A stretch of DNA of 52,569 bases from a virus (taxonomy: Duplodnaviria > Caudoviricetes). The stretch is taken from IMG/VR virus record IMGVR_UViG_3300046807_000026, positions 1-52,569 of that record, one strand, 5' to 3'. Made by a program: the position numbers and the translations under genes. The notes under the pieces are model-generated. The model did no database searches. It was not told the DNA's origin and saw only the letters and a program-made list of their open reading frames with translations. This document shows positions 5,301 through 46,419 of the stretch, piece by piece. Positions within the stretch are counted from its first letter, which is position 1, and each line of letters starts with the position of its first letter.

Positions 5301-7493
5301 TCTACTGATGGAAATACTTGGAATAATGCCCCAGTTCATTCAAACTTAAACTTGTGGTCAGTAGCAGCATCTAATACTGCTTTGAGTACTTCTGCGGAAG
5401 TAACGCTACTGGTGAATGGTAATGGTGTTAATAATGGAACAATCTTTACTGACAGTAGTTCTAATGCATTTGTCCCTACAGTTTTTGGTAATGCTATAAC
5501 AAGTACTGCTCAAAGTAAATTTGGTGGATCATCAATGTATTTTGATGGTAGCGGCGATGTTATTAGATATGTTGATGATAAAAAATTTAGATTTGCTTCT
5601 TCTGATTTCACTTTAGAATTTTGGATTTATCCTACAACTACAAGCGGATCGAGAGTTTGGGTTACTACTGCTGAACCAAGTGATGGTCAGGGTTTGTATG
5701 TAGGTGCGAATAATGCGTCATTGCAATTAGCTGTAGGAAATGGTTCATTTTTTATAAATAATAGTTTTAGTTCATTTACTGCAAATACATGGATGCATGT
5801 TGCTGTTACAAAACAAGAAAACATATATAGAGTATTTAAAGATGGTGTACTTGTATTTTCAACAGTAAATACTACAGTACTTAGTAATACTAATAATGCA
5901 ATCTATATTGGTGGAAGATTGAATCCAAGGGCGTTTAACAACTATGCTCAAGGTTACATGCAAGATGTACGATTAGTAATGGGACAAGCTTTATATACCA
6001 GTAACTTTTCTGTACCAACTGCAGCTTTAACAACAACCATTCCAAATACTTCAGTTAAATATGTAGCAGGTGGAGCATCTGGTGTTACACTATATTCAAA
6101 TGATGCAAACTCTTGGTATGGTGGTTTCAGTACTTTCAGTCAAATAATTTCTGACATAGAATGGACAGGTTCCAACTTTGTAGCATGTGGTACTAGTTTT
6201 CAAGCTGCTGGTGGAGGTGGAGATTTTATTGAAACTTCTTCCAATGGTATTAATTGGACTGAAAGAACGCCCGGTTTTGGTAGCTATGTTGGTATTAGTT
6301 ATGGTGGTGGTAAAACTGTTATGACAGATGGTACTAGAAGTTTAGTATCATCAGATGATGGTCTATCTTGGAAACAATATACTGTACAACGACCAAATTA
6401 TGCCAATGGAGGTTATTCGGTAGCGGCTGCTGTAGATAATGGAGTATACGTAAATGGAGAACATGCTTTTCATGGAAGTTCCGGTGTACTTTATTCAACA
6501 GATGGTAATATCTGGAATCAAGGTGGTTTCTTTAGTAATGTACAATCAGAAGGTCCAAGATGGACGGATGTTGTTTGGACTGGTGTAAATTTTGTTTGTG
6601 TAGCAGGTAATACATTCTCATGGGATAACGTAGCATACTCTCCAGATGCTGGATATTGGAAAGGTTCTAGACTACCCTACGCTTCTCAATGGACTACGGT
6701 AACCAGCAACGGAACTTTGTTGTTGGCTAGAGATAGCATGTTAAACCAAGTATCAATATCAAATGATCATGGTGTTACTTGGTCTAAAGCATATCCATTA
6801 CCATTTTCACCAACTAACTTTATTGACAATACATTAGGTTTATTTATTGCTCTTATAAACGGTGGTTCATGTTATACATCTACTGATGGTATTAATTGGA
6901 CAGCTAGAACTATGCCGGGAAGTTATAATTGGTACGATGGTTTATGGACAGGTTCAGTATTTTTAGCAATTACAAGTAATTCTACTATTGCTGCAACCAG
7001 TATTAATGGTGTTACTTGGACCAGTTTAACTTTACCGGGAGTTGTTTCAGCAGGTATCGGTGAAAATATGGCATATGGTGGTGGGCGAATTATTATTGTT
7101 GCAGGTACAACTTGTTACTACAGTGATAATAATGGAACTACTTGGGGGACTGCTACAGTACCAGCTACTCAAAATGGTTATTACGGTGTTTCATATCTTA
7201 ACGGTAAATTTATTACTGTTCCTAGATATTTTACAGCAGGAACTGATCTTCCAAGATATAGTTCTGATGGTATAACTTGGTACATGGGTAATACCACAAG
7301 TACAAGTATTTCAGATTCATCCATTGCTAGTAATAGTACAGTGAGTATTATAGTGAGTGCATATACAGATTTACCTTATATTTCATATGATGGTATTAAC
7401 TGGTTGCAGTATTCAGTTACTCCAAGTACACAAGAGTATGTTGGAACTACTACAACATTTGTAGGTAGCAATTCATTTATAGGACAAAAATAA
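2370..7493 (+). CDS. Giant adhesin / receptor-binding protein: Asp-box (S-x-D-G-x-x-W) beta-propeller repeats plus a LamG/concanavalin-like domain
   Basis: Dozens of SxDGxxW repeats; LamG signature FTLEFWIYP...WMHVAVT...GYMQDVRL; ATGA overlap with the upstream gene. Confidence 0.75.
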   Translation: MTFSAKISQKNAIPGSDFYTTLDGRSKNTVSSDGNNTLVVGSLGIIDFSNDNGLTWYASKSYPSIGAGTVNKIIYANGQFVAATTVGIYISKTGDAWYRTVSTNFHSIQYNGSIYVGAAGNGVFSSTDLITFTSRKTTTRGGTADIVWTGVAFIVTFSGNGIVFRSTDGINWTLSNQTLDTYTFSYDGTSWLAHSSYGYGRTSTDGINWNTCIDGLTQSQLPTQTIWDSTNSRYVASLGNLTSLTGSGHMATSMDGKTWTNRLTDASNAYLGIARNANTFVGVGYTGKIAYSTDSGTNWTKLPKSFLLPASSWNWCTGNSSRFIASGNTATAMVVSSDDGISWDIRVTSTTFAGYTLTGAGYVVWNGTMFVGIISTSTQSRTIYSSDGITWTMGGALPSLGSWTALAWNGSVWATVRSGSNAAAYSTDGINWTSATLPVSANWNHGAGIIGGRITCCVDSAITTVYTTDGITWTQGSMSASRSWQGMASNGTRLVATAYSSSVAAVSTDGITWTEYALPVSTTWQRVASTGTAFCVPSNSSAIVAVSTDGQTWVQKAIGFTGAGPCGASSNRFCVLAFSSSSSSVSFNNGNAFATPPGNFAWNSVTYGNSKFLAVGSSGSTATSVDGINWSYNVKVPVAYTLPTSINWGPIVSDGTTTVISNGPQLTNTTYLSSTNSGDSWTQRAFPVNTLWSPYSCLYANGTWVFVAASAGWANLLTSSVLYSSNGTTWNTSSIPSNQVSCLTYGAGKFLVTTTSSQSYQSVDNGVNWTSFFLTSSGPWQAGAYGASKFVFAVGGPNTISNKVVYGDVGNWTETTLPLSKNWMKMLWTGSMFILIGGWNTYTNEYLTSTDGISWTVRTFPISSTWINAALDSSNNICVISGGAVANNKTLVSSDGINWKVGILPSSSQWFGLAWTGTNFITSVGGSVSSNVYAMSPDGISWSLSSNTGIPSPNAFRKVIYDNSKFIAVGDTGSIATSTDGNTWNNAPVHSNLNLWSVAASNTALSTSAEVTLLVNGNGVNNGTIFTDSSSNAFVPTVFGNAITSTAQSKFGGSSMYFDGSGDVIRYVDDKKFRFASSDFTLEFWIYPTTTSGSRVWVTTAEPSDGQGLYVGANNASLQLAVGNGSFFINNSFSSFTANTWMHVAVTKQENIYRVFKDGVLVFSTVNTTVLSNTNNAIYIGGRLNPRAFNNYAQGYMQDVRLVMGQALYTSNFSVPTAALTTTIPNTSVKYVAGGASGVTLYSNDANSWYGGFSTFSQIISDIEWTGSNFVACGTSFQAAGGGGDFIETSSNGINWTERTPGFGSYVGISYGGGKTVMTDGTRSLVSSDDGLSWKQYTVQRPNYANGGYSVAAAVDNGVYVNGEHAFHGSSGVLYSTDGNIWNQGGFFSNVQSEGPRWTDVVWTGVNFVCVAGNTFSWDNVAYSPDAGYWKGSRLPYASQWTTVTSNGTLLLARDSMLNQVSISNDHGVTWSKAYPLPFSPTNFIDNTLGLFIALINGGSCYTSTDGINWTARTMPGSYNWYDGLWTGSVFLAITSNSTIAATSINGVTWTSLTLPGVVSAGIGENMAYGGGRIIIVAGTTCYYSDNNGTTWGTATVPATQNGYYGVSYLNGKFITVPRYFTAGTDLPRYSSDGITWYMGNTTSTSISDSSIASNSTVSIIVSAYTDLPYISYDGINWLQYSVTPSTQEYVGTTTTFVGSNSFIGQK

Positions 7494-39406: not shown

Positions 39407-40208
39407 TCAACACCTTTCTAACTGTAACAAATTTATTTTCATCATACAAATCTAAAACATCAGTATAATTATCTATTGCGTAAGAACGAAACCAACCAGA
39501 ACATAGTGTAGTACAAATCTTATTTACTGACTTGTAAAACGCTAGTTTAGATGGTGTTTTCCAATCGCTAGGTACTAAAAACCTTTCAGTTGAAATAACA
39601 TAAGCTTCTTCTGCAATGCATCTAAGTTTGTCTGCATGGCTTAGATTGTACCACAGATTTTTATCACACCACGCTAAACTTGAATCTTTTTGCAATTTTT
39701 TATACAAAGGCTCTTCGTGATAAGCAAACAATTCATGCAAGTAATCATGATTGTACTTCTTAGTTACTGCATCATCAAAGAAATCTTCTACTGTTTGCAT
39801 CAAGTTTGGATTACCTTGTGGATATGCTGACATAGTAAGCTTAATTCGTTTGTGCAATATATCTTCATCCTTGTCGGTAAAGAACGGACGAAATACTTTT
39901 AAGTACGTATTGTATTGTGTCATATGCTTTTCAAACTTACGATCACGCCATAGGTGACTGCGCTTGACAATTGCAAGACCAATAGGGTTAACTACATAGA
40001 CTCTTTGACCTCCAATTGTAATGTAGTGCGTACTGGCATAATTCAATAGATCGTAGTTACCAATTGTATCAAACGTATGATTTTCAATACGCAAGGCACG
40101 ATCTTGAATTTTATGTTCGCTAATAATATCCCAATCTGAATCTGGTCTTACTTTGAAGGTAGCACTCCAGTATTGTAATGCTTGTGAACCAATCAGTAGA
40201 TTTTTCAT
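39396..40208 (-). CDS. Putative nucleotidyltransferase-fold protein
   Basis: N-terminal LIGS...DWDII resembles the pol-beta superfamily hGS...DxD signature; RBS aaggag. Confidence 0.5.
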   Translation of the reverse strand: MKNLLIGSQALQYWSATFKVRPDSDWDIISEHKIQDRALRIENHTFDTIGNYDLLNYASTHYITIGGQRVYVVNPIGLAIVKRSHLWRDRKFEKHMTQYNTYLKVFRPFFTDKDEDILHKRIKLTMSAYPQGNPNLMQTVEDFFDDAVTKKYNHDYLHELFAYHEEPLYKKLQKDSSLAWCDKNLWYNLSHADKLRCIAEEAYVISTERFLVPSDWKTPSKLAFYKSVNKICTTLCSGWFRSYAIDNYTDVLDLYDENKFVTVRKVLNGT

Positions 40209-40220
40209 GTTTACTCCTTA

Positions 40221-40545
40221 GTTATAGTTCAGTATATTCCGTATCTTAGTTTCAGTTAACTGTCTAGGCGCAAACAGGCCATCGTCCAACTTTAACCCAA
40301 ATAGTAAACCACGTTCGTTTACCCAACCTGAAATATACTGAACTATAACCTCTGGTCCCTAAACCAGTATTATAGTGTCTTTTCCTATTGGACGACAATC
40401 CGCAGGTCTAAGAAATCCGAATGCGAAGTCCACCATCACTCGCATCTTTTTCCAATTCCCCGCTACGCAGGGAGGTTGATAGGGCTTGCACCTACCTCGG
40501 GTTGTACTCACTTCTAGGGATATGAAGCTTGCAGAGAACCGGGAC
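40221..40545 (-). ncRNA. Unassigned structured RNA (one ~330-nt RNA or two adjacent RNAs)
   Basis: No ORF in the track; higher GC than flanks; many stems including a perfect 18-bp inverted repeat (40221-38/40332-49) and a T-loop-like hairpin; lies in a tRNA operon. Confidence 0.55.
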
Positions 40546-40553
40546 TAATTTTA

Positions 40554-40643
40554 TGGTGGACAAAAGGAGAATTGAACTCCTGTCTTCCTCCTATGCTATT
40601 AGGAAGTTTCACATCAGCATCAGATGATTAACCCATCTTGTCC
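40554..40643 (-). ncRNA. tRNA-like RNA lacking canonical D and anticodon arms
   Basis: Acceptor stem GGACAAG/TTTGTCC plus ACCA; T-arm AGGAG-TTCAATT-CTCCT; non-canonical middle. Confidence 0.7.
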
Positions 40644-40648
40644 ATATT

Positions 40649-40725
40649 TGGTGCGAGTGGAGGGATTCGAACCCCCGACCAATGGTGTAGAAGACCAGTG
40701 CTCTATCCAACTGAGCTACACTCGC
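40649..40725 (-). tRNA. tRNA-Arg(TCT)
   Basis: GCGAGTG acceptor, D-arm GCTC-AGTTGGATA-GAGC, anticodon loop CT-TCT-AC, T-loop TTCGAAT, encoded CCA. Confidence 0.95.
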
Positions 40726-40734
40726 TTAACCTCA

Positions 40735-40764
40735 ATTATACATCAGTTTTCAATCCCATGTCAA
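40735..40764 (-). promoter_or_regulatory. Promoter for the tRNA/ncRNA operon
   Basis: TTGACA-N18-TATAAT, about 10 nt upstream of tRNA-Arg. Confidence 0.75.
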
Positions 40765-40909
40765 CATTTCGCAAAATATTTTCTTTGATGTTCAAATTAG
40801 CTAACTTGTTCAGATCAGACTTAGGCATCTGCATACAAGCCCTGAGCATACCATCTTTATACTGTTCCAAAGTATGATGATCTTTATTGTACTTATAAAT
40901 GTAACTCAT
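40736..40909 (-). CDS. Small hypothetical protein (57 aa, not in the ORF track)
   Basis: MSYIYKYNKDHHTLEQY...; RBS aaaggt. Confidence 0.45.
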   Translation of the reverse strand: MSYIYKYNKDHHTLEQYKDGMLRACMQMPKSDLNKLANLNIKENILRNVDMGLKTDV

Positions 40910-45390: not shown

Positions 45391-46419
45391 TTATTCATTT
45401 TTGATCAACCATTTATTTGAGATAGCCTTAAAACTACGATCATGAATACTGTTACTCTTGAATACAAGACCTTCACGTTCAGAAGCATTAAGTTCTGATT
45501 TACCTTCAGCTTGTGCAAGAATACCTGAAACACTTTCACCTACAAGCGAAATGTCTTCAGCAAGAATTGGTACATGCTTTAGACCCAAACGCTCACATGC
45601 AGCTTTAAGCTGGACTGGCAAGATATACTGTGCCGTATGAGTATTGTACATGTCATAGACGTAGAAGTCAAGCTGAGTTTTGTACTGATTACCTTGGATG
45701 CCTTCACCAATCATCTCACCTTGAATTGCCATACCCTTCATAAAATTACGGCGCATAATATCCTCAATTTGGAACTTACGTGCTACTTTCCAGAATGAAT
45801 TTGCTTCATCTTCTTTCAAGTCAAGATTACGTGAGCATACATGGAATACGTCTTCATCGTCTAGATAGAACGTGCAAGATGAACCGTCAAGTTTTTCAGT
45901 AATAGACCAAGTATCTTCTTGGAATATACCATTGAATTCTTTTACAAGATTTTGTACACGCTCTTGGTCAGTCTTTGGTACTAACGTAGGGAAATTGCCT
46001 CGTGCCATACCAGCAAGTTGAGCATTCATTGGACGTTCCCATTTGATGATATTTAACCACTCAGTTACATCGTCACCTTCACTCAAGGATGACCAACAGC
46101 CTTGCTTTTCAACACATGAGGAAATAGGTAGCAATAAACCTTGTGAAATTTGACCACGTAGTTTAATTGTACGTAGACGTTCACCCTCTACACCTTCAAA
46201 TACTTTTGGAAAGTGTCCAGCTTTGGTTAGAAATGGTGCAAGGGCTGTTGGAACCCACGAATCCGGTTCCGCATACACAACCAAATCGTTAATTTGGTAC
46301 TTACCAACTGAGTCAACTACCCACCAGCCATCTACACGATAAGCACAAATTTTATCTGCACCTTCAATAGACTTTACTTCTGCAATTTTACGAATCGTTG
46401 CGAGTTTTCTTTCTGTCAT
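45391..46419 (-). CDS. RNA ligase (Rnl2 / DRB0094 family)
   Basis: N-terminal RKLATIRKI...LRGQISQGL; PKTDQER, TEKLDGSS, QGE, REGLV, FKAISN. Confidence 0.9.
   Translation of the reverse strand: MTERKLATIRKIAEVKSIEGADKICAYRVDGWWVVDSVGKYQINDLVVYAEPDSWVPTALAPFLTKAGHFPKVFEGVEGERLRTIKLRGQISQGLLLPISSCVEKQGCWSSLSEGDDVTEWLNIIKWERPMNAQLAGMARGNFPTLVPKTDQERVQNLVKEFNGIFQEDTWSITEKLDGSSCTFYLDDEDVFHVCSRNLDLKEDEANSFWKVARKFQIEDIMRRNFMKGMAIQGEMIGEGIQGNQYKTQLDFYVYDMYNTHTAQYILPVQLKAACERLGLKHVPILAEDISLVGESVSGILAQAEGKSELNASEREGLVFKSNSIHDRSFKAISNKWLIKNE

Follow-up and report, generated by a model that had tools for sequence, protein, structure and literature searches.

The 52,569-nucleotide (nt) stretch analyzed here, referred to as the window, is a 52.6-kilobase (kb) viral contig from IMG/VR (IMGVR_UViG_3300046807_000026; completeness 66% according to CheckV). 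On its minus strand, from 40643 (G1) to 40554 (A76), it carries the gene for a 90-nt tRNA-like RNA, referred to as the element. The element belongs to a discrete, single-copy RNA family of freshwater phages that resides inside their tRNA arrays, and its cloverleaf is maintained by compensatory changes. We propose, with moderate confidence, that it is a tRNA mimic that is processed and stable but does not decode; its acceptor end and elbow would engage a host factor that handles tRNAs, and its two hairpin loops would make a second, specific contact. A preliminary description, made from the letters alone, had given the coordinates and letters correctly, the strand being minus, and the acceptor stem with its ACCA end, the T arm and the 5-nt distance from the CCA of the neighboring tRNA-Arg that it reported were all confirmed in the letters. 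Read 5' to 3', the element is made up as follows:

40637 to 40643, minus strand: acceptor 5' strand, GGACAAG, positions 1 to 7; pairs 1 to 4 identical in 23 of 23 variants
40627 to 40636, minus strand: D-arm substitute, AUGGGUUAAU, positions 8 to 17; A8-U13 and G7.U14 would form a vestigial D-like stem
40612 to 40626, minus strand: hairpin 1, analogue of the anticodon arm, positions 18 to 32; CAUC-UGAUGCU-GAUG, a 4-base-pair (bp) stem with a 7-nt loop
40607 to 40611, minus strand: linker UGAAA, positions 33 to 37; G34, A35, A36 and A37 invariant
40587 to 40606, minus strand: hairpin 2, analogue of a long variable arm, positions 38 to 57; CUUCCUA-AUAGCA-UAGGAGG, a 7-bp stem with loop AUAGCA
40582 to 40586, minus strand: purine-rich linker AAGAC, positions 58 to 62
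40565 to 40581, minus strand: T arm, AGGAG-UUCAAUU-CUCCU, positions 63 to 79; equivalent of C56 at 40574
40554 to 40564, minus strand: acceptor 3' strand UUUGUCC, discriminator A and encoded CCA; GUCC-A-CCA invariant

When compared with a canonical tRNA, the window copy was found to have a 7-bp acceptor stem (six Watson-Crick pairs and G7.U, with only pairs 1 to 4 universal across the family), followed by discriminator A73 and an encoded CCA. The T arm is also canonical, with a 5-bp stem and a 7-nt loop containing U54, U55, a purine at 57 and A58. The anticodon arm departs from the canonical form, having a 4-bp stem instead of 5 bp and, in the loop UGAUGCU, G33 and C37 in place of U33 and a purine at 37, in agreement with the earlier statement that there is no U33-type anticodon loop. 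The D arm of the window copy has at most two pairs (G7.U14 and A8-U13), and other members have three to four pairs and a 4-nt loop. The earlier claim that there is no D arm thus holds for a normal D stem in the window copy but misses a D-like mini-hairpin of 2 to 4 bp that is backed by covariation. Similarly, the claim that there is no recognizable anticodon arm is right in that none is readable, but the middle of the molecule is more tRNA-like than was described, with a five-arm topology resembling that of class II tRNAs. The GAC reported before the T arm is present in the window copy (AAGAC) but is not conserved across the family.

Standard tools did not find the element. ARAGORN reported only tRNA-Met and tRNA-Arg in the window and no transfer-messenger RNA (tmRNA), and it called none of 23 variants as a tRNA. 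Rfam at gathering scores returned the same two genes, and neither of these two checks, both proposed in the preliminary description, called the element. With the Rfam tRNA model (RF00005) it reached 18.4 bits, below the cut-off of 29 (E = 0.48 on 601 nt), with the acceptor and T arm alone being aligned, and no Rfam 15 family matched it even at E values up to 10 (region 40200 to 40800, as for the further Rfam comparisons below). The single-sequence fold was no better than chance (z = -1.53; 19 of 200 shuffles folded as well). Since the fold of the lone sequence was unremarkable, the reality of the element had to rest on comparison with relatives.

The search for relatives started from a neighboring open reading frame (ORF) of 270 amino acids, which led to 19 related phage loci, and blastn then found the element in many of them. 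Three pattern scans were run, with both loops fixed, with one loop fixed, and with only the anchors GGAC..UG..GAAA..GUCCACCA fixed. Twenty-four distinct variants were obtained, 90 or 91 nt in length (91 nt in 15), from about 27 IMG/VR contigs including the window (5 to 385 kb in size) plus 12 metagenome contigs; some of the contigs probably represent the same phages. The anchor-only scan, applied to the whole viral collection with the loops left free, yielded 13 new stretches, of which 11 were chance matches and two were members sharing one sequence; this added a single variant, with one base changed in each loop. A covariance model (R1) built from 19 variants scored members at 87.7 to 111.9 bits, and the next best matches in the 331 kb searched were ordinary tRNAs at 27.7 bits or less, the best being a tRNA-Tyr with the acceptor GGACAGA/UCUGUCC-A-CCA. 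Each of the five bearers searched, including the complete 385-kb phage, had one strong copy.

The element is accessory and mobile among phages. Bearers include unrelated phage genomes of 50 to 385 kb, and the relatives with known hosts (Limnohabitans and Curvibacter phages) lack it. All five relatives that were searched whole proved to have no copy; among them are Limnohabitans phage DC31, Curvibacter phage P26059A and a complete 80-kb genome. No relative had a normal tRNA-Ser or tRNA-Leu at the site, the case that the preliminary description had named as contrary to its view; relatives either carry the element or lack it altogether. When the 601-nt region and one family member were compared by blastn with 50,697 deposited phage records, the only matches were to tRNA-Arg genes and to the element-less DC31. 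A bacterial origin was considered and rejected, as one genome from each of 185,579 prokaryote species gave no hits to an exact pattern that required both loops and would have missed diverged copies.

The structure was assessed by counting pairs on a model-based alignment of 23 of the 24 variants, which leans toward R1; the same structural result was obtained on a MAFFT alignment of 19 variants and also with RNAalifold, which independently returned three hairpins and a 4-bp acceptor. Paired cells amounted to 95.0% across the 23 variants, compared to 79.8% in shuffles (0 of 500 reached the observed value) and 45 to 55% with slid partners, and 11 pairs change on both sides, counts that overstate the number of independent events because the variants are related and only about 13% divergent on average. 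Hairpin 1 is 100% paired, with three of its four pairs changing on both sides and six versions of the stem. Hairpin 2 is 99.4% paired, with two-sided changes at pairs 38-57, 40-55 and 42-53, and the T stem is 98.3% paired, with two-sided changes at three of five pairs. Comparison of homologs thus showed compensated changes in both hairpins and the T stem, and the two hairpins drawn in the preliminary description exist and are both backed by covariation. In the acceptor, pairs 5, 6 and 7 are paired in 15, 8 and 21 of the 23 variants, respectively.

A screen of all column pairs picked out two extra contacts, the D-like hairpin and an elbow pair. The D-like mini-hairpin has the 4-nt loop U9-G10-N11-N12 and a stem of 3 to 4 bp in the 91-nt forms, against at most 2 bp in the window copy. 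Its pair 8-13 is AU in 10 variants, CG in 9, UA in 3 and other in 1, and its pair 7-14 is GC in 10, AU in 9, GU in 3 and other in 1. The elbow pair 11-70, which joins position 11 to T-loop position 56, is UA in 17 variants, AU in 4 and GC in 2 and is paired in 23 of 23; in the window copy G11 pairs with the C56 equivalent at 40574. T-loop positions 54, 55 and 58 are invariant, and position 56 is C, U or A but always complementary to position 11. The 90-nt subgroup by itself shows all three states of the 11-56 pair. On a naive assumption of independence, an exact match would have odds of about 1 in 1.5 million, a figure that is too optimistic given the kinship of the sequences. The N11:N56 pair beside invariant G10 and U55 would fit the G19:C56 and G18:U55 contacts of the tRNA elbow, and from this arrangement the distance from CCA to elbow is probably tRNA-like.

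The predicted topology is that of a five-arm, class-II-like cloverleaf in which the acceptor is followed by a mini D arm, then by hairpins 1 and 2, and finally by the T arm. In the window copy the acceptor/T branch is a regular 7/5. In the 91-nt forms, whose acceptor pairs 5 to 7 are poor, linker 59-62 could form pairs with the U-rich 3' strand in their place, lengthening the T stem; all 23 variants can form pairs 59-83 and 60-82, and 17 of 23 can form pair 62-80, with one-sided changes only. The 91-nt forms may accordingly divide the acceptor/T branch as 4 + 3-4 + 5, a proposal that draws on these one-sided changes. We know of no description of such a division for any tRNA-like RNA.

Some parts of the element are kept by sequence as well as by shape. 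None of the 23 variants departs from the GGAC/GUCC pairs (G1 to C4 with G69 to C72), A73 or CCA, and this holds for the 19 that were retrieved without requiring them. U9 and G10, the loop 1 frame UGNNGCU, G34 to A37, and U54, U55 and A58 are also invariant or almost so. In hairpin 2 the upper stem and loop are nearly constant, from C41 to G54, the exceptions being one flipped pair and one loop base; loop 2 is AAUAGCAU, and one variant has AACAGCAU. Loop 1 is UGAUGCU in 21 of 24 variants, the others being UGCAGCU, UGAGGCU and UGCUGCU. The invariance of the loops is partly a product of searching by the loops, but the anchor-only scan argues that it is real. The stems between the invariant blocks drift freely. 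That the acceptor end and loops stay constant while other stems drift points to sequence-specific contacts at the acceptor end and the two loops, beyond shape alone. The constancy of the four acceptor pairs and A73 is what would be expected if a protein recognized the acceptor end in the manner of a synthetase. Pair 3-70 is A-U in 23 of 23 variants and not the G3.U70 alanine identity pair of tmRNA, as had been stated for the window copy.

The same acceptor features suggest an origin. Among tRNAs of the same arrays, all eight tRNA-Tyr and all five tRNA-Ser genes start with GGA, and A73 is found in 8 of 8 tRNA-Tyr and 3 of 5 tRNA-Ser genes. G1-G2-A3...U70-C71-C72-A73 together with a long extra arm would thus correspond to the pattern of these tRNA-Tyr and tRNA-Ser genes. 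Considering the GGA starts, A73 and the tRNA-Tyr acceptor noted above, the element is most simply explained as a derivative of a class II (long-variable-arm) tRNA.

The setting of the element in the window, where it is the second of three RNAs on one strand, is as follows:

40735 to 40764, minus strand: sigma-70-type promoter, TTGACA, 18-nt spacer, TATAAT; 12 of 12 consensus matches
40649 to 40725, minus strand: canonical tRNA-Arg(UCU) with encoded CCA; called by ARAGORN, and 70.5 bits with the Rfam tRNA model
40644 to 40648, minus strand: 5-nt spacer AAUAU; U at -1 relative to G1
40385 to 40553, minus strand: separate conserved RNA of about 170 nt, right after the CCA of the element and outside the tRNA-like fold

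The same promoter letters are found in DC31, and no terminator-like sites were found between 40950 and 40150. The promoter at 40764 to 40735 would drive tRNA-Arg, the element and the downstream RNA as one transcript. The base at -1 is most often U (13 of 19 variants), otherwise C (4) or A (2), and in 14 of the 19 a sequence ending in CCA lies 3 to 11 nt upstream. The tRNA that precedes the element varies by phage, being Arg, a Met-type CAU tRNA, Asp, Tyr, Ser or Pro, and the arrays in which it sits have 2 to 23 tRNAs. The upstream CCA ends, the placement in arrays, the base at -1 and the promoter without a terminator fit maturation of the element by the tRNA machinery.

We therefore suggest a sequence of steps for the proposed mimic. 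The element would be cotranscribed with tRNA-Arg from the promoter at 40764 to 40735, RNase P would cut at U-1/G1, and the 3' end would be trimmed to the encoded CCA as in the neighboring tRNAs, giving a stable 90-nt RNA. The tRNA-like half would be more than a processing handle: it would occupy a host factor for class II tRNAs, or be charged by one, and the two nearly invariant loops would provide a second, sequence-specific contact, with the RNA acting as a decoy or adaptor during infection. The view in the preliminary description that the element has been selected as a tRNA mimic, and is not simply decaying, agrees with the compensated stems, the covarying elbow pair and the invariant acceptor end and loops. 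The particular partners that it named (tRNases, EF-Tu, SmpB, RelA or a nucleotidyltransferase) drew no support from the analysis.

Several observations weigh against this proposal. Close relatives do well without the element, as in all five that were searched whole. The kinship of the variants (13% mean divergence) weakens the invariance of the loops and acceptor as evidence. Acceptor pairs 5 to 7 are mismatched or bulged in 15 of 23 variants, which is unusual for a substrate of a synthetase or EF-Tu. No protein gene co-occurs beside the element, its flanks being tRNAs, promoters and unrelated sequence; the downstream ORF (DUF7275/DUF7277) was considered as a partner and rejected, having no link to the element in other phages. 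In four metatranscriptome runs (region 40200 to 40800), contigs covered tRNA-Arg and 40385 to 40554 but none covered 40557 to 40640; these data consist of contigs only, from phages that may lack the element, and are uninformative on it either way. The processing, stability and CCA status of the RNA are matters that we infer from sequence and setting, the identity of the partner is a guess, and the synthetase identity rules applied here come from E. coli and Thermus.

If the RNA is such a mimic, its partner might tentatively be sought among class-II synthetases and tRNA-targeting defense nucleases, though even the two taken together seem doubtful to us. Seryl-tRNA synthetase recognizes its tRNAs by their acceptor stem, long extra arm and elbow and makes no use of the anticodon, on which tyrosyl-tRNA synthetase depends, as known mainly from E. 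coli and Thermus. If the element is charged at all, serine would be the best guess, seryl-tRNA synthetase being the most anticodon-independent candidate. A more far-reaching idea, which we regard as speculative and rather unlikely to hold as a whole, is that the element represents a new class of phage tRNA mimic, derived from a class II tRNA, that no longer decodes but retains a covarying elbow and the identity elements of a synthetase substrate, namely GGAC/GUCC-A-CCA and a long extra arm. Such an RNA might be aminoacylated, most plausibly with serine, for non-ribosomal use, or might be a decoy for a host defense nuclease that targets tRNAs or for a tRNA-sensing factor, and in part of the family the branch of 12 to 13 layers would be rebuilt as 4 + 3-4 + 5 with the help of a strand of the variable region.

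The alternative that survives best, although we consider it unlikely, is that the element is a tRNA-scaffolded small RNA in which the tRNA half serves RNase P maturation and stability and the loops bind an RNA target or a protein that binds RNA but has no part in tRNA biology. Constraint is indeed strongest in the loops and the GAAA linker, the layout is like that in phage T4, where small stable RNAs follow tRNA-Arg, and a second stable RNA, of about 170 nt, comes after the element. A scaffold, however, leaves unexplained why acceptor pairs 1 to 4 and A73 are constant while the T and hairpin stems covary. In addition, sites complementary to the loops were not enriched in the mRNAs of the window, to which the comparison with synonymous-codon shuffles was confined (loop 2, 5 sites versus 5.2 expected; loop 1, 4 versus 3.0). 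An antisense role toward window mRNAs had been entertained and was rejected: 8-mer complements of loop 2 seemed enriched in plus-strand genes, but all were in one frame.

Other functions for the loops were likewise tried and rejected. A small ORF, AUG-CUG-NNN-UGA, spans hairpin 1, but its third codon tracks the stem covariation and one variant loses the stop. A kissing interaction between loop 1 (AUGCU) and loop 2 (AGCAU), which is used in the single-sequence minimum-free-energy fold, is not supported by the family, in which four loop changes are uncompensated and only GCU/AGC stays complementary, although these bases may still make a 3-bp contact. Hammerhead-like letters occur near loop 1 and GAAA, but the C of the motif is paired in hairpin 1 and there is no room for the second stem; the hammerhead core also requires a base that varies in the family.

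A second alternative, which we hold to be improbable, is that the element is processing punctuation whose fold recruits RNase P and the 3' trimming enzymes in order to free its neighbors, namely tRNA-Arg at its 3' end and the 170-nt RNA at its 5' end. In the window it lies exactly between these two with no promoter or terminator between them, and one metatranscriptome contig of the downstream RNA (run X15, record 1) starts at 40554, the last base of the CCA. Plant mitochondrial t-elements would be the analogue. In most other phages, however, the element stands between ordinary tRNAs that need no extra signal, in DC31 the 170-nt RNA directly follows a tRNA-Arg-like gene without the element, and the invariant loops and covarying elbow exceed what a cleavage signal needs.

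Slightly less promising again is a genuine but odd decoder, that is, a class II tRNA, perhaps charged independently of the anticodon, with a nonstandard anticodon loop; we think this quite improbable. It would account for the five-arm cloverleaf with its intact elbow, CCA and 7-nt loop on hairpin 1, and the element is kept in phages with only two other tRNAs, Arg(UCU) and one with a CAU anticodon. Phages are also known to have irregular tRNAs with odd acceptor/T splits (PMC5389517). Against this, G33 and C37 stand on a 4-bp stem, and four central loop 1 triplets (AUG, CAG, AGG and CUG) occur on nearly identical bodies, which would switch the codon read without a change in the body. Conservation is also higher in the loop of the supposed variable arm than in the "anticodon," and the tRNA finders responded poorly (ARAGORN, 0 of 23; Rfam, 18.4 bits). 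Given G33 and C37, the 4-bp stem and the four triplets on nearly identical bodies, the element most likely does not read codons. A decaying tRNA pseudogene or a chance resemblance, to which the single-sequence fold (z = -1.53) and the subthreshold Rfam tRNA score might point, is hardly credible in view of 23 aligned variants that keep 95% of their pairs with 11 two-sided changes, a fixed length of 90 to 91 nt, several invariant blocks, and occurrence in unrelated genomes of 50 to 385 kb.

The element was also compared with known systems. By layout, the closest known analogues are the small stable RNAs of phage T4, RNAC (species 1) and RNAD (species 2), which have no homology to it by model or BLAST and whose roles are given as unknown in the literature (PMC3014915, PMC9697503). 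The T4 order on one strand is tRNA-Arg, rnaD (119 nt) and rnaC (139 nt) with spacers of 1 to 6 nt, resembling the window order of tRNA-Arg(UCU), 90-nt element and RNA of about 170 nt in that a small RNA directly follows tRNA-Arg on the same strand. The rnaC RNA ends in a T-arm-like hairpin, a further likeness. The lengths and folds differ, however, and the T4 record shows no encoded CCA after rnaC; R1 scored the 3' part of rnaC at 20.4 bits, no better than any tRNA, and gave no match to rnaD at E values up to 1.

With the class II tRNAs (Tyr, Ser and Leu) of the same arrays, the element shares G1-G2-A3/U70-C71-C72, A73-CCA, the T arm, the long extra arm and a gene-like placement. It differs from them in that the window copy lacks a D stem of 3 to 4 bp with a GG loop, that there is no stable anticodon on its 4-bp stem with G33 and C37, and that the loop of its extra arm is invariant and the arm is flanked by 5-nt linkers.

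In general architecture, the tRNA-like domain of tmRNA has an acceptor, a T arm, CCA and a substitute for the D loop without a proper stem, as does the element. The element differs in its A3-U70 pair (23 of 23) and in having no tag reading frame or pseudoknots within its 90 nt, and its best scores with the Rfam tmRNA models, 12.3 bits for the permuted and 7 bits for the beta form, fall short of the respective gathering scores of 47 and 84. A two-piece permuted tmRNA, made of the T arm of the element and the downstream RNA, was considered, its sole basis being the 12.3-bit hit (E = 3.1), and was rejected because the element has its own covarying 5' strand. One 286-kb element-bearing phage contig (L058) encodes, at 6265 to 6783, a permuted two-piece tmRNA with the tag ANDEKFLMAA (ARAGORN), 1.8 kb from the element. 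Since this bearer has its own tmRNA, the element would not be a replacement for it.

Other tRNA mimics include tRNA-Other of Bacillus cereus, the YrlA Y-RNA-like RNAs and the tRNA-like RNAs of gammaherpesvirus 68, which are tRNA shaped and handled by tRNA enzymes without ordinary decoding; D-armless mitochondrial tRNAs, in turn, work without a D stem. To our knowledge, none of these mimics has been reported from phage tRNA arrays. Rfam gave no match to those mimic families at E values up to 10, and no TROVE domain, as expected of an Rsr (Ro60) protein, was found among the 28 window proteins scanned, a set that does not extend to the plus-strand module at 114 to 28262.

Irregular tRNAs or allo-tRNAs with 8/4 or 9/3 branches have been found in metagenomes and phage tRNA clusters; they have a long variable arm and a 12-bp branch that is split unusually and in some cases bulged, and they are proposed to be suppressors and/or regulatory noncoding RNAs (Mukai et al., PMC5389517). 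The element resembles them in its long arm and perhaps in an odd branch split in the 91-nt forms, and differs from allo-tRNAs, which keep normal anticodon and D arms, in having no readable anticodon and, in the window, a 7/5 branch. A literature search limited to titles and the openings of abstracts found no description of such an RNA, though supplements, such as that of PMC5389517 on irregular phage tRNA clusters, could hold a relative.

That small stable RNAs of unsettled role, such as RNAC and RNAD of T4, occur in phage tRNA clusters has been known for 50 years, and the element family is a much cleaner case. It is the tRNA-like family that is new; phage small stable RNAs of the T4 type were already known. 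The family is short and clearly tRNA derived, it spreads from viruses of 50 to 80 kb to a 385-kb jumbo phage, and covariation separates the parts kept by shape (stems and elbow) from those kept by sequence (acceptor end, two loops and linker). The covariation also supplies precise mutations that would make the role of non-decoding tRNA-like RNAs in phage arrays directly testable. Should the partner be a synthetase or a tRNA-cleaving defense factor, the element would be the first RNA decoy of such a kind in phages. As the family is missed by tRNA finders and absent from Rfam 15, its alignment and model offer a seed from which a new entry could be built.

The RNA of about 170 nt, probably in the same transcript as the element, has homologues in 10 related loci with seven covarying pairs and contains the conserved blocks UUAGUCCCG, AUCCCUAGA, CGAGGUAGGUG, UGAUGGUG and GGAUUUCU. 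No Rfam family matched it. Metatranscriptome contigs of 152 to 177 nt from three freshwater runs cover 40385 to 40554, one of them with adapters at both ends, and the RNA looks like a stable small RNA. In DC31, as noted above, it directly follows a tRNA-Arg-like gene. The tRNA-Arg of this phage (L001, 3068 to 3494) appears split: its first 10 bases, GCGAGUGUAG, are followed by an ORF of 94 amino acids whose match to HNH is weak, at 18 bits and thus below the cut-off, and then by a 79-nt tRNA-Arg(UCU)-like RNA with the same acceptor and T arm, a normal CUUCUAA loop and no normal D arm, which ARAGORN does not call.

Further downstream in the window, at 40221 to 40349, the leader of the DUF7275 gene is flanked by the two arms of a perfect 18-nt inverted repeat (GTTATAGTTCAGTATATT and AATATACTGAACTATAAC, 93 nt apart); the repeat lies downstream of a promoter-like site at 40398 to 40369 and is conserved in DC31. 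The minus-strand module of the window encodes a DNA polymerase, a primase-helicase, a ribonucleotide reductase, a DNA ligase, an RNA ligase (PF09414) and HNH endonucleases. The RNA ligase domain (PF09414, E = 6e-29) is in a protein of 342 amino acids (45391 to 46419, minus strand) that also has a PHA02142 OB fold and adjoins the ATP-dependent DNA ligase; this protein may act in RNA or tRNA repair.

Other irregular RNAs were observed in the related loci. A 102-nt RNA (L009, 1844 to 1945; L018, 1827 to 1928) has normal acceptor, D and T arms and is called tRNA-Arg(acg) by ARAGORN; about 48 nt replace its anticodon arm and variable loop, and in L018 it stands directly before the element. Genes of 92 to 95 nt for tRNAs with the anticodon UAU (Ile according to ARAGORN; L035, 12992 to 13083; L045, 3790 to 3881; L054, 7611 to 7705; L056, 914 to 1005) have a long extra arm, which is odd for isoleucine, and recur in several element-bearing arrays. 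Sequences of 95 to 117 nt with long inserts in the middle (L050, 930 to 1035 and 3756 to 3872; L001, 5040 to 5134; L019, 2382 to 2484) are tRNA-like, with good acceptor and T arms and CCA; R1 scored them at 18 to 27 bits, as it does ordinary tRNAs, and ARAGORN made no call. In P26059A (L002, 2912 to 3902), about 1 kb without annotated genes follows tRNA-Arg(UCU) and contains several extended -10-like boxes (TGGTATAAT), T-arm-like hairpins and a 99-nt "tRNA-Pyl(cta)" called by ARAGORN, suggesting that this stretch may hold several small RNAs.

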